A DNA stretch of 64,000 nucleotides from Candidatus Woykebacteria bacterium (GTDB lineage Bacteria; Patescibacteriota; Microgenomatia; Woykebacterales; RBG-16-39-9b), in NCBI GenBank assembly GCA_040876345.1, contig JBBDPM010000001.1, forward strand, positions 270,313 through 334,312. The letters run 5' to 3'. Under the pieces are notes generated by a model. The model did not search any database, was not told the origin of the DNA, and worked only from the letters and a program-made list of their open reading frames with translations. Shown here one piece after another: positions 2,003-53,615 of the stretch (within the stretch, counting starts at the first letter, position 1; the number at the start of each line of letters is the position of its first letter). The translations under genes and the position numbers were made by a program.

Positions 2003-3401
2003 ACTTAGAAACTTAACAAGCGTTTTGAAGAATCCGATTAGTTTAATACTAATTTATATAGTTCTCTGTGGAATTGTTAACGCACGGTTTATAAAATTCA
2101 ATGATCAAGCAAAAGATATAGCTCTGGTAGCCTTTCTGCTAATTACATTATTGATCTACATAATCTACAGTTGTAGGCTGAAGTTCTCAGCCTTTCTCCA
2201 TAAAGTTTTTACTTGGCCAAACCGGATAATTTTGGCCTATCTTACTTGGTCTTTAATTACCCTAGGCTTTGCGATTGATAAAAAGATAACGCTTTTTTAT
2301 ATGATTGGTGGTTTTTTGGTTTTTCTGACCAGTTTTGTTCTAACCAAAGATTTGGTTAACAAGGATAATTTTAAGAAAATTCTATATGCGGTTGGAGCTA
2401 CAGGGCTGATCTCTGTACTATATGTTTTAGGTACAATTATTTTAGGAATCACTAGTCCAGACTTTGACCCGGCTTTTGCTAGAGTTAATCTGGTTATTGG
2501 TTCTTATACAATATATAACCTTCCTTTTTTATTTTCATACTTTGAGCATCCCAACACTCTTGGTATAGCGCTATTTTTTTCAATATCCAGTTTTCTTACT
2601 CTAGCTCTTTTGGAAAAAAATAAAATCTTGAGGATGATGCTGTATTTATTTAGCATTTTGTTAGTGCTTGGTCTTGTTTTAACTTTTTCTAGGGCGTCAA
2701 TTTTAGCTACGTCTGTATTTGGTTTACTAATAGGTTATCAAGCCTTGAGAAAGAGTAATTACCTAATACCAGTTTTTTCGACATTTTTAATTTTAGTAAC
2801 TATATTAGCCACGCTTGGCGCCTATCAAATATTTTTAGTTAAGGAAAAATCAATGGTGAACACGAATAAAAGTAAGTCATTGGTTAAAACGGAAAATCGA
2901 TGGGAAATAAAAAAACTATCAGACGAAGTTAACTTTCAAAAACCAGAGTCTGGTAGGAAGGTAGTTAAAAGTGGGCTAACAAGTAGAGGGGTACTCTGGC
3001 GAAGCGCAGTTGAATATATAATGGGAAATCCTTTAGTAGGCGCAGGATTTGGAAATTCAGAAAAAGCAATTGAGAGTAAAATTATCCCTAATAATGAAAA
3101 TTTGGTTGGACTAACGCCGCACAATACTTATTTGAGGGTCGGTGTAGAATCTGGTGTTACTGGATTGATTTTATACCTAACAATTATGTTTTATTTCTTT
3201 AAGTCCTTTTTCATAAGGCTTAGAAGATTAAGTGTAGAGGAATTTGCCACTTTATCAATTGTGGTTAGTTATCTGGTATTACAATTTTTTGAAGCAAATT
3301 TTCTTTTTGGTACTGGATTTAAAAGTTTTTATTTATTAATATTTCTAGCTGCTGGTTTTGCTTTTATTAACTCTAAGACCTATGAAAATATTAATAATTA
3401 G
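1995..3401 (+). CDS. O-antigen ligase/polymerase-like polytopic membrane protein
   Basis: 468 aa, ~10 predicted TM helices plus a periplasmic loop, located inside a glycosyltransferase operon; resembles WaaL/Wzy-type proteins. Confidence 0.55.
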   Translation: MLKLRNLTSVLKNPISLILIYIVLCGIVNARFIKFNDQAKDIALVAFLLITLLIYIIYSCRLKFSAFLHKVFTWPNRIILAYLTWSLITLGFAIDKKITLFYMIGGFLVFLTSFVLTKDLVNKDNFKKILYAVGATGLISVLYVLGTIILGITSPDFDPAFARVNLVIGSYTIYNLPFLFSYFEHPNTLGIALFFSISSFLTLALLEKNKILRMMLYLFSILLVLGLVLTFSRASILATSVFGLLIGYQALRKSNYLIPVFSTFLILVTILATLGAYQIFLVKEKSMVNTNKSKSLVKTENRWEIKKLSDEVNFQKPESGRKVVKSGLTSRGVLWRSAVEYIMGNPLVGAGFGNSEKAIESKIIPNNENLVGLTPHNTYLRVGVESGVTGLILYLTIMFYFFKSFFIRLRRLSVEEFATLSIVVSYLVLQFFEANFLFGTGFKSFYLLIFLAAGFAFINSKTYENINN

Positions 3402-10587: not shown

Positions 10588-11340
10588 ATGCATACTTTCT
10601 CGACCGAGGGGATTATCTTAAAAAGGATTGATTTTGGTGAAGCAGATAGATTAGTTACTGTTTTTACAAAAAACAAAGGTAAAATTACAAGCTTAGCCAA
10701 AGGAATTCGCAGGATTGAGTCAAGGAGATCCGGTAATGTGGATCTTCTGAATAGAGTGAAACTTTTTTTTGCCCAGAGTAAGGGCTTGCCGATTCTAACT
10801 GAAGCTGAAGCTGTCGATACCTATAAAAACCTAAAAAAAGATTTAGGAAGGGTTGGGCAAGCTTATTATTTAATTGAGTTAACAGATCAATTTTTTCATG
10901 ATCAACAGGAAAATTTTAGAGTTTACGATTTGCTATCCGAGTCGTTGAGCTTGTTAGATAGGGGAGAAAGGGTTGAGAGTATAATTCGCGCGTTTGAGCT
11001 TAAGATTCTTTCTCTGGCTGGCTACAAGCCACAGCTTTTTAGTTGTCCCAAGTGTCGTGTAAGGATTTCTCAAACAGAAAATTTTCTCAGTCCCGAGGCA
11101 GGTGGAGTTTTGGATAAATCTTGTGCTAATGGGTCGGCTATTGTGAAGTCAATATCACCGCAGATAATTAAGCTAATGCGTTTTTCGAATGATAGGCCGT
11201 TGGAGGAGTCTTTAAGAGTGAGTGTGCCGGGCAGCTTGATGGGCGATTTTAAGGCTCATATGAGGTTTTATTTGGAGTATATTTTGGAGAAACAGCTTTC
11301 CTCGACTAATTTTGCGGAGAAAATAAATGGGTTGGGGTAG
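10588..11340 (+). CDS. recO: DNA repair protein RecO
   Basis: N-terminal OB-fold motif EGIILKRIDFGEADRLVTVFTKNKGKI, C-terminal CxxC zinc motif (SCPKCRVRIS). Confidence 0.8.
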   Translation: MHTFSTEGIILKRIDFGEADRLVTVFTKNKGKITSLAKGIRRIESRRSGNVDLLNRVKLFFAQSKGLPILTEAEAVDTYKNLKKDLGRVGQAYYLIELTDQFFHDQQENFRVYDLLSESLSLLDRGERVESIIRAFELKILSLAGYKPQLFSCPKCRVRISQTENFLSPEAGGVLDKSCANGSAIVKSISPQIIKLMRFSNDRPLEESLRVSVPGSLMGDFKAHMRFYLEYILEKQLSSTNFAEKINGLG

Positions 11341-11427
11341 CAGCAGGCCGCTTGTGTTTATTGACGAGCCTGCTGCTTTCGACCCCACCTCCTTTCCAGC
11401 GCCCGCTTGCTTAAGACTGGGGCTTGT

Positions 11428-11598
11428 TTAGCCCAGCTGGACGGGTTTTTTACCACCAAGTTCCTCGCGGAGGATCTCTAGTTCCTCCGGGGCTTCGATG
11501 CCGAGCTTAACTCGACGTTTGCCGATCGAGAGTACCTTGATGAAGATGCGCCCGTCGATCCAGAACCCTTCTTGGAGTTTTCGATCCAGCACGATCAT
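11428..11598 (-). CDS. csrA: carbon storage regulator CsrA-like RNA-binding protein (56 aa)
   Basis: Not in ORF track (short). Translation MIVLDRKLQEGFWIDGRIFIKVLSIGKRRVKLGIEAPEELEILREELGGKKPVQLG matches CsrA fold pattern (MLxLxRKxxExxxIxxxIxIxVLxIxGxxVxLGIxAPxExxIxRxEL); GGAGG SD 6 nt upstream; GC clearly higher than flanks. Confidence 0.7.
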   Translation of the reverse strand: MIVLDRKLQEGFWIDGRIFIKVLSIGKRRVKLGIEAPEELEILREELGGKKPVQLG

Positions 11599-11625
11599 GT
11601 TAGGCCTCCCTCTCCTCAGTTATTT

Positions 11626-11685
11626 ACGGCTATCCTGGCCGTATTCAGGGATGTGTATTCTATACTAAACTAGCCTAGATTGCAA
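11626..11685 (-). promoter_or_regulatory. csrA promoter (TTGCAA-17-TAGAAT) and leader hairpin with GGA in loop
   Basis: minus-strand -35 TTGCAA (11680-11685), -10 TAGAAT (11657-11662), leader hairpin ACGGC-CAGGAUA-GCCGU (11626-11642) and GGA-containing SD: resembles CsrA autoregulatory sites. Confidence 0.4.
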
Positions 11686-40479: not shown

Positions 40480-41562
40480 ATGCTGATCAAACCAGAAGTA
40501 AATCGGTTTGCCAAGATTAAAGTTATTGGAATTGGTGGTGCGGGGTGCAACGCCCTGAATTCAATGATTAGCCTCCAACAAATCCAGGGGGTTGATTTTA
40601 TTGGTGTTAATACCGATGCCCAGGCACTTCTTACTTGCCAAGCCCCAACAAAGGTTCAAATAGGAGAGCAACTTACCCGCGGTTTAGGTTCTGGAGGCGA
40701 TCCGGAGATGGGTAGAAAAGCTGCTGAAGAATCAGTGGAAAAACTCTTAGAGATAGTTGCAGATTCTGATATGGTTTTTGTTACAGCTGGTATGGGTGGT
40801 GGTACTGGCACGGGAGCATCCCCGGCTATAGCTGAAGCTGCCAGGAAAAGTGGCGCTCTCACAGTGGCGGTAGTGACAAAGCCCTTCGCTTTTGAAGGAG
40901 CTCACCGAAGGATTGTGTCAGAAGAAGGTGTCGACAACCTGAAAGACAAAGTTGACACCATGATTGTTATCCCCAACCAGAGGCTTCTTGACGTGGTAGA
41001 TAAGAAAATGAGCCTGCTAGAAGCTTTTAAAGTAGCTGATTCGGTGCTCGGTCAAGGAGTTCAAGGAATATCCGACATAATAGTAATGCCAGGGCTAATA
41101 AATGTAGATTTTGCTGATGTGCGCACTATCATGACTAATGCCGGCAGTGCTCTTATGGGTATTGGTTTTGGCTCAAGTGAAGGAAAAGCAGCGTCAGCCG
41201 CCAGAAGTGCGATCGCCTCTCCACTTCTTGAAGTTTCAATTGAAGGCGCCAAAGGAATACTCTTTAATGTTACTGGTGGGCCAGACCTTTCAATGTTTGA
41301 GGTTGATGAGGCTGCAAAAATTATCTCTTCAGCTGCAAATTCAGATGCCAATATTATTTTTGGCGCCGCTATTGATGACGCTATGGTAGATCAAGTGAAA
41401 ATTACTGTTATTGCAACAGGATTTTCCGAAGATAAACTTCGTTCAATTGAAGCAAGGGAAGCAGCTGAAGCCCTCCCGAGCATGTCTGAGGGTTCCGAAG
41501 AAGGCGAAGAAAAGAAAGAAGAAGACGAATTTGATATTCCGACATTTATGCGCCAACGCTAG
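40480..41562 (+). CDS. ftsZ: cell division GTPase FtsZ
   Basis: GIGGAGCNA, GGGTGTG tubulin signature, C-terminal DIPTFMR tail. Confidence 0.95.
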   Translation: MLIKPEVNRFAKIKVIGIGGAGCNALNSMISLQQIQGVDFIGVNTDAQALLTCQAPTKVQIGEQLTRGLGSGGDPEMGRKAAEESVEKLLEIVADSDMVFVTAGMGGGTGTGASPAIAEAARKSGALTVAVVTKPFAFEGAHRRIVSEEGVDNLKDKVDTMIVIPNQRLLDVVDKKMSLLEAFKVADSVLGQGVQGISDIIVMPGLINVDFADVRTIMTNAGSALMGIGFGSSEGKAASAARSAIASPLLEVSIEGAKGILFNVTGGPDLSMFEVDEAAKIISSAANSDANIIFGAAIDDAMVDQVKITVIATGFSEDKLRSIEAREAAEALPSMSEGSEEGEEKKEEDEFDIPTFMRQR

Positions 41563-42999: not shown

Positions 43000-43387
43000 G
43001 CCTTTTAGTTTTGGTGCCAGTCCTGTAACTACGTTTTAGTGGGTTGACTACGTTAATGTTAAGTACTATATTAGAAATAATTAAAGTGATTTCTTAGTAT
43101 TAATTGATATAGCAAGAATAAGACGAATTAGATATTCCAGCGTTTATTCGGCAAAGATAGCCCCTATAATCTTCCTACAAGTTACTTATCTTCCAAATAA
43201 CATTAATTTAGCCTAAAAACCACGTCGCTTATCGCTTATTGCCCAACATTTTAGTAAATTTGCTTGAAAGACGTATAATAATCCATGACAACAGCGAAAC
43301 CTGTTGGTAAAAGATAGAGATCGAAATTGCGGTAGTCTTGAGGAGGCTTGCTGTCAAGCTTCCGAGCACCTGCGAGGGAGGTGACTT

Positions 43388-43642
43388 GTGTCACGCAGGA
43401 TAATCGTCATAACCGTCTCCAGGGAGTGGTGGGTGATTATTGGATTCATTCTGCTACTCATTGCCTTTCAGATAGGATGCAGCTTCCTAATCGGAAAGGT
43501 GTTTCAAGAGTTGCAGGAACCGCCGCTGGCCATACCAGTTGTGCTGGTGGTAGTAAGCCCCGCACTCACCCTCCTCTTCTACCGGCTTGCTGAAAGGAGG
43601 GCCGATATACAGATCAACCGTTGTACAGAACCCGATTTCTGA
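43388..43642 (+). CDS. hypothetical 84-aa two-TM membrane protein in a GC-rich island
   Basis: GTG start preceded by GGAGG-6nt; two clean hydrophobic helices (WWVIIGFILLLIAFQIGCSFLIG, AIPVVLVVVSPALTLLFY); TATAAT at ~43273 and hairpin leader; GC clearly above flanks. Confidence 0.35.
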   Translation: MSRRIIVITVSREWWVIIGFILLLIAFQIGCSFLIGKVFQELQEPPLAIPVVLVVVSPALTLLFYRLAERRADIQINRCTEPDF

Positions 43643-43670
43643 TCAGCGGCCCAACTAGTAGCGGTGCTAA

Positions 43671-43709
43671 GAGCGTCTTCTTGGTTGAGGACGCTCTTCT
43701 CGCTTTTGG
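43671..43709 (+). terminator. intrinsic terminator (GAGCGTC-loop-GACGCTC + T-rich tail)
   Basis: 7-bp GC-rich stem, 12-nt loop, followed by TTCTCGCTTTTGG. Confidence 0.5.
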
Positions 43710-43865
43710 ATACAGAGTTAGCCTCTAGTTAGGTCGTTGGGTTGACACTTGAGTATTTTCCAGCTATATTTTAAACAATGTCTAAAACTGCTCAAGACCC
43801 GCTTTTTTTAATTTCTTCAAGTAGTTCTGCAAGGTATGTTATCCTAAATTTCACAAGAGAGGAGG

Positions 43866-45953: not shown

Positions 45954-46265
45954 TCAGAAAATTGAGCTTTCGGGGAAGTCCGGAAAAGAAACTTTTTGGG
46001 TATCAAAATCTTTTTTATCGAATTTTTCCATGAGCTCAAACACACATCTCACACCGGCCAAATTAATATTCCTTTTTGTGGTGAGGTAGCGGATAAATTG
46101 AAGTTTCTCGATATCTTTCTGGGAGTAGCGTCTTCGGTTGGTTTTTGTCCTTGATGGGATAACTAATCTTTGACTTTCATAGATCATCAGTGTTCTTGGG
46201 TGAACGCTTAAGATTTCGGCAGCGACCGAAAGAGTAAATAAGGGCTTAGAATTCTTTTCCTCCAT
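45954..46265 (-). CDS. MerR-family transcriptional regulator (HspR-like)
   Basis: FTLSVAAEILSVHPRTLMIYESQRLVIPSRTKTNRRRYSQKDIEKLQFI = MerR HTH + dimerisation helix. Confidence 0.75.
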   Translation of the reverse strand: MEEKNSKPLFTLSVAAEILSVHPRTLMIYESQRLVIPSRTKTNRRRYSQKDIEKLQFIRYLTTKRNINLAGVRCVFELMEKFDKKDFDTQKVSFPDFPESSIF

Positions 46266-46501: not shown

Positions 46502-46816
46502 GTGAAAAAGCTCAAAGAGATACTTTCTGTAAAGAAGGCATCAACTGGACAGCGCGTTATGACAATGACAACAGAGGAAGCAGGTCGTCGTGGTGGTCTA
46601 GCTGTTAAAAAGAAGTACGGCCCAACATTTTATTCAGAAATTGGTAGAAAAGGGGGACAGTCCACTAAGCGCAACTATGGACCAGACTTTTACTCAAAAA
46701 TCGGGGAAAAAGGTGGTGAGGTGGTTAAAGATAAGCATGGCGTAGTTTTTTACTCGGAGATTGGTAGACTTGGCGGAAAGTCCCGTGCTAAAAAGCAGAT
46801 GAAATTTGAGTTTTAG
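46502..46816 (+). CDS. KGG-repeat general stress protein (GsiB/YciG-like)
   Basis: four tandem repeats of ~20 aa (GRRGGLAVKKKYGPTFYSEIGRKGGQSTKRNYGPDFYSKIGEKGGEVVKDKHGVVFYSEIGRLGG) matching the KGG/stress-induced acidophilic repeat. Confidence 0.7.
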   Translation: MKKLKEILSVKKASTGQRVMTMTTEEAGRRGGLAVKKKYGPTFYSEIGRKGGQSTKRNYGPDFYSKIGEKGGEVVKDKHGVVFYSEIGRLGGKSRAKKQMKFEF

Positions 46817-46823
46817 TTTTTTT

Positions 46824-46921
46824 AGCTTTAAAAAAAGCTAAATCCCCAGTAAAACTGGGGGAAATTATCTTGGTTTTTCAAACAAAAATACAAATCGCTT
46901 GTTAAGCAGGCGATTTTTTGG
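46824..46921 (+). terminator. three consecutive hairpins after the KGG gene (AGCTTT/AAAGCT; CCCCAG/CTGGGG; AATCGC/GCGATT + T6), the last 20 nt before ileS ATG
   Basis: seen directly. Confidence 0.4.
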
Positions 46922-46937
46922 TTTAATTTACCCTGTT

Positions 46938-49805
46938 ATGTTTAAAGAAGTTTCGTCAAAAGTCGATTTTGCTGACCTGGAAAGAAAAGTCCTTTCTCAT
47001 TGGGACAAGATCTCTCTTAACAAGAAATATCTAGAGAGAAACCAATCGTCGGCGAAGAAATTCTCTTTTCTTGATGGCCCTATAACCGCTAATAACCCGA
47101 TGGGCGTGCACCACGCGTGGGGTAGGTCTTACAAAGATCTGTGGCAGCGTTTTTTCAATATGAAAGGGTTTCGCCAAAGGTTTCAGAATGGCTTTGATGA
47201 GCAGGGACTTTGGATTGAAGTAGAAGTGGAAAAAGAACTTGGTTTAAAAAGTAAGAAGGATATTGAGAATTTAGTACCTGGAAATGTTTTCGAATCGATT
47301 GCTAAGTTTGTAGATCTTTGCAAAGAACGAGTCAAGAAATTTTCGGCCGTTCAAACCGAACAATCTAAACGTTTGGGATACTTCATGGATTGGGAAAATT
47401 CCTATCACACTTCTTCTGATCAAAATAATTACGCCATTTGGCACTATCTAAAAACTGTTCATGAAAAAGGCTGGCTTTATAAGGGCCGCGACTCTGTACC
47501 TTGGTGCCCGCGTTGCGGTACGGCTATTTCTCAACACGAAATTTTAACTGAAGAGTATAAAGAAATAACTCACAAGGCACTTTTTGTAAAGTATCCGGTA
47601 GTTGCTGAGGATTATAGTCTTTTGGTGTGGACAACAACTCCTTGGACCCTTCCTGGTAATGTAGCTGTAGCAATTGATCCAAAAAAAGACTATGCAATTA
47701 CCAAAGACAATCTAGTTGTCATGTCATCCCGAATCCATGCTCTTGGACTAGAGAAAGTAAAAATAATTAAGGGTAAAGATTTAATTGGTAAAAAATATAT
47801 TGGACCCTTTGACCAACTTGAAAGGGTAAAAGAAAGTTTGGAAAGCTTTGGACACATCGTAATAGACGGTAGAGAACTTGTGAATGAGGATGAAGGTACT
47901 GGGCTTGTTCACATTGCTCCAGGTGCCGGAGAAGAAGATTTTAAATTACACAAAGACCAAAACTTACCGCTTATCGAACTTATAGACGAAGAAGCATCTT
48001 ATATTGATAGCTTAGGGGAGTTTTCTGGAAAAAATGCCAAGAAACTCCCTGAATTAATTATTGATTATCTTGATAGAAAAGACGGTGGGAAGTTTCTTTT
48101 TAAGGTGGAGAATTATAAACATCGCTATCCTACCTGCTGGCGGTGCAAGACTGAGCTCGTTTGGAGAGTAGTGGATGAGTGGTACATAGCAATGGACTCA
48201 CCCTCGCGCCAGGATATGGGAAGCAAGCCAAAAACCTATCGGGAGATGATGAAAGAAGTGATTAAAGATATAAATTGGCTTCCGAAGTGGGGATACGATA
48301 GAGAGCTAGATTGGCTGAACAATATGCACGATTGGCTAATTTCCAAGAAGCGCTATTGGGGTTTGGCTTTGCCAATTTGGGAATGTACAAATTGTGGTAG
48401 TTTCGACGTTTTCGGTTCAAAGGAAGATCTGAAAAAAAGAGCGGTTGAGGGTTGGGATAAATTTGAGGGAATATCTCCCCATAGGCCAATAATAGATTTG
48501 GTTAAGATTAAATGTTCCAAGTGTGGCGAGACAGTTTCACGGATTCGAGATGTTGGAAATGTGTGGCTCGATGCTGGAATTGTTTCCTACTCCACGCTGA
48601 AATATTTTGAAGATAAAAATTATTGGCAAGAGTGGTTTCCAGCCGATTTCATCACCGAAAGTTTCCCAGGGCAGTTCAAAAACTGGTTTTATTCGCTGAT
48701 TGCAATGTCTACTGCACTTGAGGCCAAAGCGCCATTCAAAACTCTTTTAGGGCATGGCCAAGTGCGCGACGAGAAAGGTGACGAGATGCACAAGAGCAAG
48801 GGAAATGCGATTTGGTTTGATGAAGCAGCTGAAAAAATGGGCGTGGATGTAATGCGCTGGATTTACTTGACCACAAACCCCGAACACAATGTTAACTTCG
48901 GCTACCATGTGGCAGATGAAGTCCGTCGCCGTTTTTTTCTGATTTTCTGGAACGTTTACGTGTTTTTTGTTACCTATGCCAATATCGATAAATGGGAGCC
49001 TTCGGCAACCGAAAAAGCGGAACTTTCCGATCCGCTAGATCGGTGGATTATTTCTGAGCTGAATCGGTTGATCGATTCTGTTAATAGAAAATTAGAAAAT
49101 TATGATGCGGCTACCTCCTCTCGGGAGATAGAAAAGTTTGTTATCGATCTTTCTACTTGGTATGTAAGGCGAATTCGCGATCGAGTTGGGCCAACAGCTA
49201 AAAATGGGCTGTCGAAGGTAACTACTTACCAGATGCTCTACACTACTCTTACAGCTTTAAGTAAACTTTTGGCGCCTTTTACGCCTTTCATCGCGTACGA
49301 GATTTATAAAAATCTTACTGATGAAGAGTCTGTGCATCTTGCAGACTACCCTGGAGCGGATAAAAGCGCTATTGATAAGGATTTGATTTTAAACATGGAT
49401 CAGGTTCGCAAATTGGCCGAGGTTGGTCACTCTTTGCGTAAAGAAAAAGGGATAAAGTTAAGGCAGCCTTTAGCGGTATTCTTTTATGGGAAAGATATCG
49501 AGAAACTTCCAAAAGAACTCGAAGATGTTTTGGATGCCGAGCTCAATGTTAAAAAAATAGTTTATGACAAAGGTAAAAAACCTTCTTTCGATTTCTATAT
49601 CACGGAAAGTCTCGCTGCTGAGGGTGAGGCAAGAGAGCTTGTTCGGAAAATCCAGGAAGTTCGCAAAGAGTTAGGGTGTAAGATGGATGAGTTCGTGAGT
49701 GTTGAGCTTCCAGATTGGCCAAAAGAATTTGAAGATTATCTAAAAAAAGAAACTCTCGCCAAAAACCTCACTAAAGGCGAAAAAATCCTCGTATCAAAGT
49801 CATAG
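46938..49805 (+). CDS. ileS: isoleucine--tRNA ligase (eukaryote-like type)
   Basis: class I HIGH-like region GPITANNPMGVHHAWGRS...GFDEQGLWIE (cf. IleS GWDCHGLPIE), KMSKS = MHKSKGN; start set at ATG 46938 (track used TTG 46899). Confidence 0.75.
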   Translation: MFKEVSSKVDFADLERKVLSHWDKISLNKKYLERNQSSAKKFSFLDGPITANNPMGVHHAWGRSYKDLWQRFFNMKGFRQRFQNGFDEQGLWIEVEVEKELGLKSKKDIENLVPGNVFESIAKFVDLCKERVKKFSAVQTEQSKRLGYFMDWENSYHTSSDQNNYAIWHYLKTVHEKGWLYKGRDSVPWCPRCGTAISQHEILTEEYKEITHKALFVKYPVVAEDYSLLVWTTTPWTLPGNVAVAIDPKKDYAITKDNLVVMSSRIHALGLEKVKIIKGKDLIGKKYIGPFDQLERVKESLESFGHIVIDGRELVNEDEGTGLVHIAPGAGEEDFKLHKDQNLPLIELIDEEASYIDSLGEFSGKNAKKLPELIIDYLDRKDGGKFLFKVENYKHRYPTCWRCKTELVWRVVDEWYIAMDSPSRQDMGSKPKTYREMMKEVIKDINWLPKWGYDRELDWLNNMHDWLISKKRYWGLALPIWECTNCGSFDVFGSKEDLKKRAVEGWDKFEGISPHRPIIDLVKIKCSKCGETVSRIRDVGNVWLDAGIVSYSTLKYFEDKNYWQEWFPADFITESFPGQFKNWFYSLIAMSTALEAKAPFKTLLGHGQVRDEKGDEMHKSKGNAIWFDEAAEKMGVDVMRWIYLTTNPEHNVNFGYHVADEVRRRFFLIFWNVYVFFVTYANIDKWEPSATEKAELSDPLDRWIISELNRLIDSVNRKLENYDAATSSREIEKFVIDLSTWYVRRIRDRVGPTAKNGLSKVTTYQMLYTTLTALSKLLAPFTPFIAYEIYKNLTDEESVHLADYPGADKSAIDKDLILNMDQVRKLAEVGHSLRKEKGIKLRQPLAVFFYGKDIEKLPKELEDVLDAELNVKKIVYDKGKKPSFDFYITESLAAEGEARELVRKIQEVRKELGCKMDEFVSVELPDWPKEFEDYLKKETLAKNLTKGEKILVSKS

Positions 49806-49933
49806 TTGAACTTATCACCACATTGTTATAACATTTCCACAACACTCAATCTTTTGTTATCGGTGGGAAAGGAGGATGGAAAACCAAGCCGATAATCCAG
49901 TAGGGTAACATCGCACGGAAGTGAAAGGAACTT

Positions 49934-50218
49934 ATGGTAACCGCAACACCTACGCAAGCAAGGTATGGAGGGCTCTCTGCTCCAGCAGTCACGTCTCGGC
50001 CCGGGGTGCCAACGCGTCCCGTTCTGCCTGAGCGTTTCAATGACGCCCGGGAAGCGGCGACCTGTCTGAGGGTGCAAGCGATCGCGAGGGGCATGACCAT
50101 CGATGAGGCCAACCGCATCGACAGGCACTGCAACTGCGGGTCGCGCGAGTACGCCATACCGGAGTACTGCGAGTACCTGGGGATCAAGGAGGCCCTGGTC
50201 TACCAGCGCATCGGGTGA
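49934..50218 (+). CDS. hypothetical 94-aa Cys-containing protein in GC-rich island
   Basis: AAAGGA-5nt-ATG RBS; promoter TTGAAC...TGtTATAAC at 49806-49836; terminator-like hairpin CACACC-GAT-GGTGTG at ~50257-50271; GC ~65% vs ~38% flanks; overlapping antisense ORFs are artefacts of high GC. Confidence 0.3.
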   Translation: MVTATPTQARYGGLSAPAVTSRPGVPTRPVLPERFNDAREAATCLRVQAIARGMTIDEANRIDRHCNCGSREYAIPEYCEYLGIKEALVYQRIG

Positions 50219-50332
50219 TAACGCAAGTAACCGGGTCGCGCTGACGCCACCAGTACCACGAACCCACCCCAAAGGATCACACCGATGGTGTGGGCTTCAC
50301 ACTTTCTTGGCTCACCTGTTAAAATACTCTTC

Positions 50333-51415
50333 ATGCGCTTTTTTCAAGGAATCGATTGGATACTATTCTTCCCAATGCTTTTCTTAACCTCGCTTGGGAT
50401 TTTAATGATTTACAGCACTTCAATTGAAGCAAATGGTGTTGATTATACATTTGTTTCCCGCCAGACCATATACCTCTTGCTTGGCCTTCTTATCTTTTTT
50501 ATCGTTTCAAGGATAGACTACAAACTTATTTCTAGTTTTTCTTATTTAATGTACGCTCTGGTCATAGCCCTTTTGTTGACCACTTTTTTCTACGGCGAAA
50601 TTACTCGGGGCTCAAGAAGATGGATAGATTTAGGTATTATTACTATCCAAGCTTCTGAGGTGGCTAAACCGGTAATTATCCTTACCCTCTCCTCCTTTTT
50701 TTCAAGATTTTCTCCAAAAGATTTAAAAAATGTTATAGTTTCTTTTTTGATCGTGGCGGTACCGGCAGCTTTAGTATTTATCCAACCTGATTTGGGAAAT
50801 GCGGTAATAATCATGTCACTTTGGGCCGTTTTGGTTTTTGGTGCGGGTGTCAAGATCCTCCATGCGGCTTCACTAGTATTTATAGCCTTAGTTCTTTTGC
50901 CCTTGTCTTGGTTTTTCTTGGAAGATTATCAAAAAGAGAGGCTACTGACTTTCCTTAGCCCGGAAAGGGATCCTCATGGGTCTGGTTACAACCTTGTTCA
51001 ATCAATAATCGCAGTTGGTAGTGGTGGTTTAAAGGGAAGAGGTTTCGGGAGGGGGACACAGAGCCATTTAAATTTCCTACCTGAGCAAAAGACTGATTTC
51101 ATCTTTGCCACCACAGCTGAGGAACTGGGATTTTTTGGAGTTAGTATTATATTAGGTGCCTTTGGTTTTATAATTTATCGAACTTTGGTTGCAGTTAACA
51201 AGGCAGCCGATATTCAGGGTTCTATAATTTCTCTGGGGGTTGCTGCTATGATTGCCATACACCTTTTTATAAATATTGGTATGAATATAGGAATTTTTCC
51301 GGTTACTGGTATCACGCTTCCACTTATTTCTTTTGGCGGCAGCTCTCTAATATCAGTAATGTTTAGTTTGGGGCTTGTGAACTCAGTTTCTTCTTTTTCA
51401 AAAAAATCTCACTAG
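50333..51415 (+). CDS. rodA: SEDS-family peptidoglycan glycosyltransferase RodA (second SEDS paralog)
   Basis: 10 TM, RGxGxGTQSHLNFLPE, PLISFGGSS motifs; start likely ATG 50333 (track 50285 reads through GC island edge). Confidence 0.8.
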   Translation: MRFFQGIDWILFFPMLFLTSLGILMIYSTSIEANGVDYTFVSRQTIYLLLGLLIFFIVSRIDYKLISSFSYLMYALVIALLLTTFFYGEITRGSRRWIDLGIITIQASEVAKPVIILTLSSFFSRFSPKDLKNVIVSFLIVAVPAALVFIQPDLGNAVIIMSLWAVLVFGAGVKILHAASLVFIALVLLPLSWFFLEDYQKERLLTFLSPERDPHGSGYNLVQSIIAVGSGGLKGRGFGRGTQSHLNFLPEQKTDFIFATTAEELGFFGVSIILGAFGFIIYRTLVAVNKAADIQGSIISLGVAAMIAIHLFINIGMNIGIFPVTGITLPLISFGGSSLISVMFSLGLVNSVSSFSKKSH

Positions 51416-53540: not shown

Positions 53541-53615
53541 GGGCACTTAGCTCAGTGGTAGAGCACTGCGTTCACATCGCAGGGGTCGTAGGTTCAAATC
53601 CTACAGTGCCCACCA
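53541..53615 (+). tRNA. tRNA-Val (anticodon CAC), CCA encoded
   Basis: cloverleaf read by hand: acceptor GGGCACU/AGUGCCC, D GCUC-AGUGGUA-GAGC, anticodon stem CUGCG/CGCAG loop UUCACAU, T GUAGG-UUCAAAU-CCUAC; promoter TTGATT-18-TAAAAT upstream. Confidence 0.85.

Follow-up and report, generated by a model that had tools for sequence, protein, structure and literature searches.

STAB-SD stabilises the cry3Aa mRNA through binding of the 30S subunit, according to the passage of PMC12970973 that cites Agaisse & Lereclus 1996. The STAB-SD of Firmicutes, represented by cry3Aa and by the strong-SD protection of the hbs and gsiB mRNAs from RNase J1, is among the closest known systems to the cassette described here, which is located between ileS and rodA in the window, a stretch of 64,000 nucleotides from a Candidatus Woykebacteria genome. 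What defines STAB-SD, a distant Shine-Dalgarno (SD)-like sequence of the 5' UTR that serves no start codon, is seen in this cassette. In its 5' UTR a perfect SD-like GAAAGGAGG, the STAB-SD sequence type, precedes the ATG by about 58 nt, serves no start codon itself and is close to the predicted 5' end of the transcript. In contrast to STAB-SD, the motif forms part of a conserved hairpin loop, and its host belongs to the Patescibacteria.

CsrA targets classically combine a GGA in a hairpin loop with a second GGA in the SD. Like the CsrA/RsmA leaders of B. subtilis hag and E. coli glgC, the cassette leader has at least two GGA motifs: a hairpin loop holds one, the SD overlaps the other, and 50-60 nt separate them. 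The same layout is present in the homologous cassettes. As in CsrA/RsmA-regulated systems, csrA is encoded in the same genome and its leader carries a canonical GGA hairpin. Unlike in CsrA/RsmA leaders, the full SD complement is conserved and not an ARGGAUG-type consensus, and the loops are large. The unit also resembles integron and MITE-like cassettes, being comprised of a single small ORF with a 3' hairpin, with loci that vary between genomes and a junction shared by genomes that are not sisters, and having no mobility gene. Unlike integron cassettes, it has its own promoter, lacks attC core sites (RYYYAAC/GTTRRRY) and has no integrase nearby.

The cassette is a self-contained, lineage-restricted small-gene unit inserted between ileS and rodA, which overlap or adjoin in almost all related Microgenomates (Patescibacteria). 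It is organised as a sigma-70-type promoter, a leader of about 95 nt, the SD and ATG, the 94-aa ORF, a 3' hairpin and an outward promoter, and expression would most likely be set post-transcriptionally via the loop of the 5'-proximal leader hairpin. This explanation as a whole, control by the leader loop included, is on balance probable. The initial annotation, made by reading the sequence, had proposed a layout of promoter, leader with a GGA-rich hairpin, SD with ORF, and 3' hairpin, which is borne out by the sequence and the folds. In the poorly understood Patescibacteria, the locus defines a new small-protein family and, with it, a matching RNA hairpin that would act as a cis-regulatory element.

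The cassette at the ileS-rodA junction

The rodA gene lies downstream of ileS in 76 of 80 related loci, and the two genes overlap or are at most about 40 nt apart in the 13 junctions that were read. In the window they are separated by 527 nt, the rodA start at 50333 being backed by a homologue alignment that begins at residue 1. Of 80 genomes examined from related species, about 70 have ileS and rodA as direct neighbours, so the cassette is an insertion at this junction. The features of the locus are collected in Table 1; the four homologous cassettes are designated L084, L085, L086 and L087.

Table 1. Features of the cassette, its flanking genes and csrA in the window
Feature	Position	Strand	Description or basis
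csrA	11428-11598	-	Pfam PF02599 CsrA, E = 7.5e-16; GC 0.54
ileS, upstream flank	46899..49805	+	Pfam tRNA-synt_1/Anticodon_1; 51-65% identity to Microgenomates ileS
Cassette promoter	49806..49832	+	-35 TTGAAC 49806-49811, 15-nt spacer, TG-extended -10 TGtTATAAC 49824-49832
5' UTR hairpin	49856..49896	+	9-bp stem GUUAUCGGU/GCCGAUAAU (49856-49864/49888-49896), 23-nt loop; MFE and centroid folds
SD-like GGA-rich 10-mer GGAAAGGAGG	49866-49875	+	in hairpin loop, 58 nt before ATG
Mini-hairpin CAC-GGAA-GUG	49914-49923	+	sequence
True Shine-Dalgarno AAAGGA	49924-49929	+	4-nt spacer to ATG
Protein-coding gene, 94 aa	49934..50218	+	four homologues, dN/dS, GC3 frame pattern, AF2 core
GC-rich island	49940..50300		60-70% GC; spans CDS and 3' UTR, leader excluded
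3' hairpin, terminator-like	50260..50298	+	GUGGGCUUC conserved 3' arm, then ACACUUUCUU; -16.9 kcal/mol, z -2.5
Outward rodA promoter	50296..50325	+	TTCACA-18-TAAAAT, upstream TG; 10/12 match
rodA/ftsW-family gene, downstream flank	50333..51415	+	Pfam FTSW_RODA_SPOVE

The cassette promoter begins immediately 3' of the ileS stop codon. Both the TTGAAC and the extended -10 TGtTATAAC, which the initial annotation had placed at the start of the segment, are present. With a 9/12 match plus TG it is the weakest promoter among the five cassettes, and it was not called by a consensus scan because its spacer is 15 nt long and the scan needs 16-18 nt. All four homologues have a 10/12 promoter of the form TTGAC[GT]-17-TATNNT, located 21-34 nt upstream of the leader hairpin. 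Transcription of the window cassette would start about 7 nt after the -10 element and about 17 nt before the hairpin, near 49839.

The terminator-like CACACC-GAU-GGUGUG noted initially exists as a hairpin, although it is only the tip of the larger one given in Table 1. The tail ACACUUUCUU is poor in U, and this weak U-tract is why the hairpin was not called by a terminator scan. A 3' hairpin of -15 to -29 kcal/mol is present in all homologues, with a canonical U-run in L084, and the hairpin stretch of the window cassette is about 85% identical to that of L087, which is above the identity of the coding sequences. The structure may serve as a (weak) terminator, in which case the transcript would end there.

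Past this hairpin, the outward promoter with its TG-extended -10 would restore the transcription of rodA. The -10 ends only 7 nt ahead of the rodA ATG, and the rodA mRNA is therefore probably leaderless or near-leaderless. The TGTTAAAAT before rodA is conserved in L086 and L087. The inserted gene splits a nearly universal coupled pair and would supply rodA, an essential cell-wall gene, with a near-leaderless promoter as a replacement; such a split is useful for understanding operon evolution in reduced genomes.

The 94-residue protein and its family

The ORF extends from the ATG at 49934 to the TGA ending at 50218. Upstream, the reading frame is interrupted by a TGA at 49922-49924, which makes 49934 the first possible start. 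The SD ends 4 nt before the ATG and not 5 nt, as first annotated, and AAGGA(GG) is found 4-8 nt ahead of the ATG in all homologues. The four Cys residues counted in the earlier reading are C44, C66, C68 and C79. A disordered N-terminus rich in Pro, Thr and Ala (about residues 1-31) is followed in the protein by a conserved core (about residues 32-94), which is modelled by AF2 as a four-helix bundle with pLDDT 80-88. In alignment A1 of the family 21 columns are invariant, C66, C68 and C79 among them, and 20 of the 21 fall within the core. The core motif is ID-x-HC-x-C-x2-R-x-YA-x3-YC, and the invariant core residues comprise F35, D37, R46, R52, D63, C66, C68, R71, Y73, Y78 and C79.

The ratio dN/dS is 0.2-0.5, and more than one codon is used at 10 of the 20 invariant core residues. 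A GC3 pattern is seen in the sense frame alone; the frames of the overlapping antisense ORFs are without it, and these are most likely artefacts, as had been supposed. The cassette is almost certainly a real coding one and not an artefact, an RNA or a pseudogene, and, as judged from the substitution pattern and the alignment, the ORF is a selectively maintained protein of a new, very rare family. The NCBI annotation cuts the gene to 41 aa, and standard pipelines assign it to no family.

A BLAST-type search had been suggested initially for the ORF. Among 1.84 billion representative proteins, searched exhaustively with HMMER, only four small homologous proteins were found (43-59% identity, E = 1e-17 to 6e-11), which were confirmed by profile search. 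The other significant matches were P0001, a 41-aa piece of the ORF itself, and P0006, a 985-aa TPR protein matched in 8 stretches, which was rejected as a spurious repeat match. All four homologues are located on 45-47% GC contigs, 1-7 kb long, with Patescibacteria-type neighbour genes, and each forms a GC-rich island. Two of the four, one from a JGI sample and one from another SRA run, are at the ileS-rodA junction as well. When the 80 related ileS loci were translated in six frames and searched with the HMM, no further members were found. A word-indexed search with the single ORF gave no match, its own sequence included, and the family emerged from the exhaustive search alone; tblastn gave no match against phages and only noise (E = 0.2-0.3) against plasmids. 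No match was obtained with the family peptide patterns in JGI metagenomes and IMG/VR, with an exact 21-mer of the conserved terminator/promoter in JGI metagenomes, or with the accessions in a literature search.

Nothing significant was found in Pfam, PHROGs, NCBIfam and PADLOC for any of the five family members; the PDB sequence profile search and the fold search with the AF2 model also gave no match. Since family and fold matches are absent, the function of the protein is a guess. The core of about 60 helical residues is reminiscent of XRE/Cro-type and excisionase-like HTH regulators; in its C-terminal HTH-like pattern IPEYCEYLGIKEALVYQRI the positions classical for an HTH are taken by hydrophobic and small residues, and the Foldseek neighbours below threshold in PDB and BFVD repeatedly include HTH proteins. 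No profile or fold similarity to an HTH family reached significance. The protein might be a small regulatory nucleic-acid- or metal-binding protein.

Composition, origin and possible mobility of the island

The GC content is 0.60-0.70 (60-nt windows) from about 49940 to 50300, against a mean of 0.399 for the window. The highest 200-bp value of the whole window, 0.655, is reached at this island, and the next islands have 0.58, 0.555 and 0.535. The promoter and leader (the first ~130 nt, 49806-49935) have only 38-48% GC. The region had been described as having about 65% GC over about 450 bp, and while its GC-richness stands, its GC-rich span is shorter, about 360 bp. The profile is common to all five cassettes, with 0.44-0.52 in the leader, 0.61-0.67 in the body and 0.57-0.73 in the 3' UTR. 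The core GC3 of the ORF is 0.86, compared with 0.34 +/- 0.04 for 59 genes of the window; it is 0.70-0.89 in all known copies and 0.36-0.48 in the genes flanking the homologues. The dS between the cassette copies is 0.7-1.6, yet the GC-rich body is kept in each. The persistent GC-richness of the cassette in AT-rich genomes is a real compositional pattern. A GC-rich coding body present in five AT-rich genomes, for which no high-GC source is known, challenges the equation of an atypical-GC island with recent HGT, and may point to selection on nucleotide composition or on rare codons.

Such an island could arise in several other ways. It could be filled by a structured non-coding RNA, or by the CsrA-titrating RNA considered in the initial annotation, with the ORF being spurious; in AT-rich genomes such islands often turn out to be structured RNAs, and several GGA motifs are present in this one. 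The GGAs, however, cluster in the leader only, the folding z-scores of the whole island are +0.28 and -0.02 on the two strands, and the selection at the protein level argues against an RNA gene. The proposed Rfam check gave no match in the island at the gathering threshold or at E <= 10, so that it is not a known RNA. The best E-values between 49700 and 50400 were 4.6-5.2, far below the gathering score, and the only match at gathering score in the window was a tRNA-Val at 53541. A CsrA-titrating RNA is unlikely as the main function because the ORF is under purifying selection and the whole RNA folds like shuffled sequence, and an RNA gene in place of the ORF is extremely improbable.

A non-functional relic of recently acquired foreign high-GC DNA (HGT or a mobile-element remnant), in which ORF and hairpins would be incidental, would agree with the extremely atypical composition and codon usage of the ORF, with the patchy distribution of the cassette and with the lack of family assignments. 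It is nevertheless very unlikely, given that four other genomes have kept the protein core and, around it, the promoter, leader hairpin, SD and 3' hairpin, and that dN/dS is below 1. The leader is not GC-rich, and hence the cassette does not have the composition of one donor; nor were terminal inverted repeats, target-site duplications or attC sites found in it. HGT had been raised at the outset, but a simple, recent transfer from a donor of high GC is unsupported, because about 15 billion proteins included no homologue in a high-GC genome or context. An assembly chimera had also been suspected, and a mis-join would agree with the abrupt change of composition inside a MAG contig. Such a chimera was excluded for practical purposes, its probability being negligible: over 12.3 kb the sequence of JBBDVF010000004.1, an NCBI MAG contig, is the same as in an independent Logan assembly of SRR27977661, the ORF is carried by three Logan contigs, both flanks continue in the gene order of relatives, orthologous cassettes occupy the same junction in two unrelated samples, and the 3' UTR is similar to that of L087 to the extent given above.

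The cassette is patchily distributed and apparently mobile. The gene tree and the host tree disagree: the window protein is closest to copies at other loci, and its host groups with the cassette-free L004, L005 and L073 and not with the cassette-bearing L086. L086 carries tandemly duplicated units. The conflict of the trees, these tandem units and the GC-rich body kept everywhere are the grounds for regarding the cassette as a compositionally autonomous, mobile small-gene unit of a kind unrecognised so far in Patescibacteria, which is an unlikely reading. If it were true, the GC-richness would be maintained by selection or by a biased process acting on DNA or mRNA and not inherited from a donor, and the cassette would move or duplicate without a mobility gene, the leader and 3' hairpins possibly doubling as recombination sites. 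Among attC motifs, GTTRRRY was present in none of the five 3' regions and RYYYAAC was found once, in L086; the search for terminal inverted repeats and target-site duplications detected only 9-16 nt repeats, 75-100% complementary and unrelated to the borders. The divergent GC-rich 141-aa ORF of L084 and the 44/51-aa and 125-aa ORFs of L086 had no family, PDB or homologue match. The 125-aa ORF shows a weak similarity to the present family by hhalign (E = 3e-4, probability 38%).

The leader hairpin and its possible ligand

RNA folding confirmed the earlier suggestion of clustered GGA motifs within a leader hairpin: the loop (49865-49887), closed by the 9-bp stem, carries four of them. The leader of the window cassette contains 6 GGA in 96 nt (shuffle p = 0.009), a number reached by 0.5% of the 96-nt segments of the window; the enrichment is not significant in two homologues. 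The stem abutting the 10-mer in the window cassette has P = 0.008 against shuffles, and stems of different sequence abut the 10-mer in L086, L085 and L084 (each P < 0.01). In these tests, made by script, G-U pairs were allowed, and the loops differ in length (11-31 nt) among the cassettes. The stem is 9-11 bp long in four of the five and weak (4+2 bp) in L087. Whole-leader folds are no more stable than those of shuffled sequence. Since the hairpin is conserved with a covarying stem in four homologous cassettes, it is probably a functional RNA element; the covariation is read from five related sequences, too few for a rigorous separation from shared descent.

The 10-mer is invariant in four of the five cassettes, the fifth having GGUAAGGAGG. 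In the preferred, though tentative, reading the loop would pair with the anti-SD of 16S rRNA and keep a 30S subunit close to the transcript's 5' end, where it may act as a STAB-SD-like stabiliser or as a standby site for an mRNA that is GC-rich and has rare codons. The complementarity was judged against the near-universal CCUCC core of the anti-SD.

Translation from the 10-mer itself was considered as well. An ATG or GTG abuts the 10-mer at zero spacing in the window cassette, L086 and L085, the short frames being different, and no start codon is conserved behind the 10-mer or at a workable distance in the five cassettes compared. An upstream leader peptide was a candidate, with an ATG-9 codons-TAA frame in the window cassette (49875-49907) and a GTG frame ending in GGG-TAA in L086; it was dropped on account of the zero spacing to the SD-like motif and of L087, L084 and L085 having no equivalent.

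The loop may instead be a target of CsrA. A dimer of the protein encoded at 11428-11598, a gene that had been picked out initially as a GC-rich csrA and is one, would bridge the GGA of the loop and that of the SD, block the 30S subunit and repress the 94-aa protein. The csrA gene and the target would be in one genome, and of the six GGAs of the window leader one cluster is placed in the loop of the conserved hairpin and another in the SD. The csrA leader bears the textbook hairpin UACGGC-CAGGAUA-GCCGUA, which suggests that this genome makes use of CsrA-type sites. The loop of the window cassette contains AGGAUG, the core of the CsrA SELEX consensus (RUACARGGAUGU). In ultra-small groundwater prokaryotes csrA is reported to be highly expressed (PMC9938205). 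Against this, the GGAUG is not kept in the homologues, which have GGAGGUG, GGAGGUA, GGAGGGU and GGAGGAC, so that only GGA is conserved; the loops are larger than typical CsrA hairpin loops; one CsrA dimer could not span the two GGAs within the 10-mer, which are too close together; and the GGA enrichment fails to reach significance in two of the homologous leaders. Conservation covers the entire 10-mer complementary to the anti-SD, beyond the A(N)GGA core of a CsrA site, and for this reason binding of the 30S subunit would explain the loop at least as well as CsrA, whose control of the cassette is somewhat unlikely.

The SD-like loop is a testable candidate for ribosome-mediated mRNA stabilisation or CsrA control in a phylum unstudied for either, and CCAAACCACC is a mutated counterpart of the loop 10-mer, as a design only. 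The sole other exact copy of GGAAAGGAGG in the window follows csrA at a distance of 31 nt on its downstream side, a point in favour of CsrA. Ten copies of the 10-mer are present in 877 kb of related loci; five of them are cassette leaders, and only the leader copies among the ten are followed by a GC-rich (0.60-0.65) downstream region.

The cassette and its leader RNA

The GC-rich island between ileS and rodA is a genuine and self-contained cassette for a small gene, its leader a conserved SD-like/GGA hairpin. It is neither an artefact nor a known RNA. An assembly chimera, considered in the initial annotation, is contradicted by an independent Logan assembly of SRR27977661, which is identical across the 12.3 kb compared; the exact ORF is encoded on three Logan contigs, and the window sequence lies within NCBI MAG contig JBBDVF010000004.1 (GCA_040903525.1). 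The best Rfam value within 49700-50400 was E = 4.6, the window's only match being a tRNA-Val elsewhere. On neither strand (z +0.28 and -0.02) does the island fold more stably than its dinucleotide-shuffled versions. The anatomy described initially (promoter, GGA-rich hairpin leader, SD with ORF, 3' hairpin) was right in outline, and the positions of its parts are listed in the table.

Both promoter boxes are present. The promoter, TTGAAC-15-TATAAC with TG, escapes a 16-18-nt consensus scan because its spacer is 15 nt. Homologous cassettes at four metagenome loci (L084-L087) have sigma-70-like promoters, TTGAC[GT]-17-TATNNT (10/12), 21-34 nt upstream of the hairpin. RNA folding places the GGA cluster in the loop of a 9-bp hairpin, as anticipated. 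All five leaders contain GG[A/U]AAGGAGG, and four of them share the exact 10-mer GGAAAGGAGG. A 9-11-bp stem directly abuts the 10-mer in the window, L086, L085 and L084, with a loop of 11-23 nt (P < 0.01 each vs shuffled flanks); the L087 stem is interrupted and has 4+2 bp only. The stems differ in sequence (GUUAUCGGU/GCCGAUAAU, UUGUUGGAC/GUCCAACAA, GUUGAGUGG/CUACUCAAC, UCUGCUUUCUC/GAGAAGGCGGG), a mark of structural conservation. Of 10 copies of the 10-mer across 877 kb of related loci, five are the cassette leaders, and only these are followed by GC-rich sequence. The window leader holds 6 GGA in 96 nt (shuffle p = 0.009), a number reached by 0.5% of the window's 96-nt windows, and the homologues hold 4-6. 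The five leaders have no conserved start codon behind the 10-mer; a 10-codon frame found there in the window is not common to the homologues and was rejected.

The terminator-like hairpin CACACC-GAU-GGUGUG is present as the tip of a larger stem-loop; its U-tail is poor, and no terminator was called. A stable 3' hairpin is found in all five cassettes (-15 to -29 kcal/mol), with the 3' arm G(U/C)GGGCUUC common to four and a canonical U-run in L084. Ahead of rodA, the window, L086 and L087 have TGTTAAAAT, which ends 7-10 nt before the ATG, and the rodA mRNA may be leaderless or near-leaderless. The window and L087 are about 85% identical through the 3' UTR, hairpin and rodA promoter, and less so in the CDS (core amino-acid identity 48%). 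To judge from these elements, the cassette amounts to a full transcription unit whose leader RNA is conserved.

Features of the cassette, of other parts of the window and of the homologue loci
Feature	Position (strand)	Remarks
Cassette -35 box	49806-49811	TTGAAC, right behind ileS stop
Cassette extended -10 box	49824-49832	TGtTATAAC
Leader stem	49856-49864/49888-49896	9 bp
Leader 10-mer	49866-49875	in hairpin loop
In-frame TGA	49922-49924	first start after it: ATG 49934
SD	49924-49929	AAAGGA
94-aa ORF	49934-50218	also the Logan gene call
NCBI gene call	50093-50218	41 aa only, start at M54
3' stem-loop	50260-50298	-16.9 kcal/mol, z -2.5
rodA promoter region	50296-50333	TG-extended -10, TTCACA-18-TAAAAT, 10/12; ends 7 nt before ATG
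csrA	11428-11598 (-)	Pfam E = 7.5e-16
csrA leader	11599-11665 (-)	UACGGC-CAGGAUA-GCCGUA fold, GGA within 7-nt loop; then purine-rich SD GAGGAGAGGGAGG
Other exact 10-mer copy	11388-11397 (-)	flanked by csrA 3' hairpin and the following terminator
Strong bidirectional terminator	about 11341-11378	-38 kcal/mol, z -2.8
GC island	11285-11665	GC up to 0.58
GC island	43362-43748	GC up to 0.555
GC island	40779-41000	GC up to 0.535
84-aa membrane-like ORF	43388-43642 (+)	GC 0.51, GC3 0.60; strong SD GGGAGGUGA
MerR-family regulator gene	45954-46265 (-)	just upstream of ileS
KGG/LEA_5-type stress-protein-like gene	46502-46816 (+)	104 aa, just upstream of ileS; GAAAGGAGG directly at annotated GTG start
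L084 (SRR31809889)		P0003 cassette between 2-hydroxyacid dehydrogenase gene and secA
L084, second GC-rich ORF	2213-2638 (-)	141 aa, GC about 0.58, divergent from P0003 cassette; own terminator hairpin
L085 (SRR30360286)		between TSP3-repeat protein and ComM/YifB-like gene
L086 (JGI 3300065473)		ileS - two small ORFs - P0004 - rodA - rplU
L086, ileS-rodA island	860-2130	~1.2 kb, two tandem units
L087 (SRR25318650)		ileS - P0005 - rodA

The 94-aa protein and its family

The ORF with its four Cys and the SD AAAGGA are as initially annotated, except that the ATG follows the SD at 4 nt, not 5; in each of the homologues an SD lies 4-8 nt ahead of the ATG. The ORF had no matches in Pfam, PHROGs, or phage and plasmid tblastn, nor in a word-indexed search of 5.8 billion clusters. 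Searched exhaustively with HMMER, 1.84 billion representatives yielded P0001, which is the truncated 41-aa NCBI call of the same gene, four true homologues (P0002-P0005; 93-135 aa, E = 1e-17 to 6e-11, 43-59% identical) and one TPR repeat protein, rejected as spurious. A profile search recovered the same four homologues and none further.

In the alignment of the five proteins a variable, Pro/Thr/Ala/Arg-rich N-terminus precedes a core conserved from about residue 32, upstream of M54, which marks the 41-aa call as truncated. Invariant are F35, D37, A41, A42, R46, R52, A59, I62, D63, C66, C68, R71, Y73, A74, Y78, C79, L82, I84, V89 and I93; H65 is found in four of the five, and C44 is not conserved. 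Pairwise over 63 codons, core dN/dS is about 0.2-0.5 at dS 0.67-1.65, more than one codon is used at 10 of the 20 invariant residues, and GC3 reaches 0.85-0.95 over the C-terminal two thirds in the sense frame only. The frame of the 94-aa ORF is thus the selected one, and the ORF is a genuine gene whose family is very rare. Since the selection signals point to the sense frame, the long antisense ORFs, of 148 and 113 aa, are, as had been supposed, best read as by-products of GC-richness.

AlphaFold2, run on the five-sequence alignment, predicts disorder at the N-terminus (pLDDT <50 for residues 1-23) followed by four helices, at 38-51, 56-64, 71-82 and 86-91 (pLDDT about 73-88). Foldseek found no significant fold neighbours in PDB (best E = 2.4) or BFVD (best E = 0.7). 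The weak matches repeatedly include helix-turn-helix proteins (XRE, Cro and winged-helix types), and the C-terminal segment IPEYCEYLGIKEALVYQRI agrees with the classical helix-turn-helix hydrophobic pattern; the resemblance is a lead, not a result.

Possible action of the leader

The near-invariant loop sequence is the full Shine-Dalgarno complement, GAAAGGAGG(U). In Firmicutes, a 5'-proximal hairpin with a ribosome-binding SD-like site is a classical protection from 5'-end-dependent mRNA decay. The loop is of the STAB-SD sequence type. According to PMC12970973, which cites Agaisse and Lereclus (1996), the STAB-SD element stabilises cry3Aa mRNA, reportedly via 30S subunit binding. By analogy, the leader hairpin and its SD-like loop would guard the cassette mRNA against 5'-end-dependent decay, and such protection would fit an mRNA that is GC-rich and full of codons rare for the host. 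We tentatively propose this ribosome-binding protection as a serious possibility, somewhat short of an even chance.

The initial annotation had suggested a CsrA target or a CsrA-titrating RNA. The coding evidence for the ORF makes an RNA that titrates CsrA and encodes nothing unlikely. Action of CsrA on the leader is suggested by the csrA gene in the window, by the GGA sites in the hairpin loop and SD, by the GGA hairpin of the csrA leader, which has the look of a classic site of CsrA autoregulation, and by a second exact 10-mer, the only further one in the window, which follows the csrA stop by 31 nt; by our own estimate, about 0.1-0.3 copies of a 10-mer would be expected by chance in 128 kb. 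However, the conserved stretch far exceeds what CsrA needs, the GGAUG of the window leader is not conserved, and the loops are of unusual size. Control by CsrA is a plausible reading, yet not a proven one, neither the sole reading nor arguably the best, and we consider it rather unlikely. SD-like sequences are common CsrA sites, so that the 30S and CsrA models are not exclusive. The csrA gene itself is of atypical composition (GC 0.54; GC3 0.65 vs a gene mean of 0.34).

Genomic setting, spread and composition

With the ileS protein as query, the GTDB species set yielded 80 Microgenomates/Patescibacteria loci; the best match, at 65% identity, is from Candidatus Woykebacteria. Of these loci, 76 have rodA downstream of ileS, about 70 of them directly so, and the order extends into rplU in nearly all. 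In cassette-free relatives (13 junctions read) ileS and rodA overlap or are separated by no more than about 40 nt; the gap in the window is 527 nt. No relative of the ORF was found in the 80 loci by tblastn or by a profile HMM on six-frame translations. The cassette is thus an insertion into the conserved gene pair, and with the rodA promoter that it supplies it would uncouple rodA from ileS.

The four homologue contigs have 45-47% GC and neighbour genes of Patescibacteria type, to which the family, new and very rare, is so far confined. A neighbour-joining tree of rodA and L21 (422 columns) groups the window with cassette-free L004, L005 and L073 (76% bootstrap) and leaves cassette-bearing L086 outside. 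The closest available relative by the ileS C-terminus is L087 (70% identity); the window protein is closer to P0002 and P0003, from other loci (core identity 62-63%), than to P0005 of L087. The tandem units of L086 share promoter TTGACGCTTG and terminator GUGGGCUUC. Unit 2 is P0004; unit 1 is a diverged copy, now a pair of ORFs of 44/51 aa and 125 aa in translational coupling (ATGA). The 125-aa ORF is weakly similar to the cassette protein family (hhalign E = 3e-4), and a search of 5.8 billion clusters gave no further homologue of it. The tree discordance, the protein affinities and the tandem units suggest duplication and movement of the cassette between loci and genomes. No mobility gene, terminal inverted repeats, target-site duplication or attC core sites were found for it. 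The second GC-rich ORF of L084 had no Pfam, NCBIfam or PDB match.

Mean window GC is 39.9% (sd 4.8%, 200-bp windows), and the island's peak of 0.655 is the top value; three other islands exceed 0.52. The GC-rich island initially described at ~65% over ~450 bp is present, with a GC-rich span of ~360 bp: 60-nt windows are at 0.60-0.70 from about 49940 to 50300, and promoter and leader have 38-48%. Core GC3 is 0.86 vs 0.34 +/- 0.04 for 59 window genes (maximum 0.48). All four homologue loci have such an island (gene GC 0.60-0.65; core GC3 0.70-0.89 vs 0.36-0.48 in flanking genes), and the five cassettes share one profile (leader 0.44-0.52, variable N-terminal part 0.61-0.67, 3' UTR 0.57-0.73). 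Across the 877 kb, only the five cassettes stand at least 0.2 above local mean GC; the remaining 17 segments passing a +0.15 threshold exceed it by merely 0.15-0.17. Among the copies dS is 0.7-1.6, G<->C swaps make up 26% of synonymous third-position differences, and GC3 is kept at 0.7-0.9 beside an AT-normal leader. No relatives in high-GC genomes were found among about 15 billion proteins. Two candidate explanations are repeated re-seeding of the copies from a high-GC reservoir outside the sampled genomes, and upkeep of the composition, or of the rare-codon content, as such.

Orphan small genes are common in such genomes; this cassette is unusual and experimentally tractable for its conserved leader RNA, its splitting of ileS-rodA with promoter replacement, and its persistent compositional autonomy. 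The 84-aa ORF of the second GC-rich island belongs to no Pfam or NCBIfam family, and the GGAGG upstream of it is sequestered in a 9-bp hairpin. Small genes of deviant composition may thus recur in this genome.
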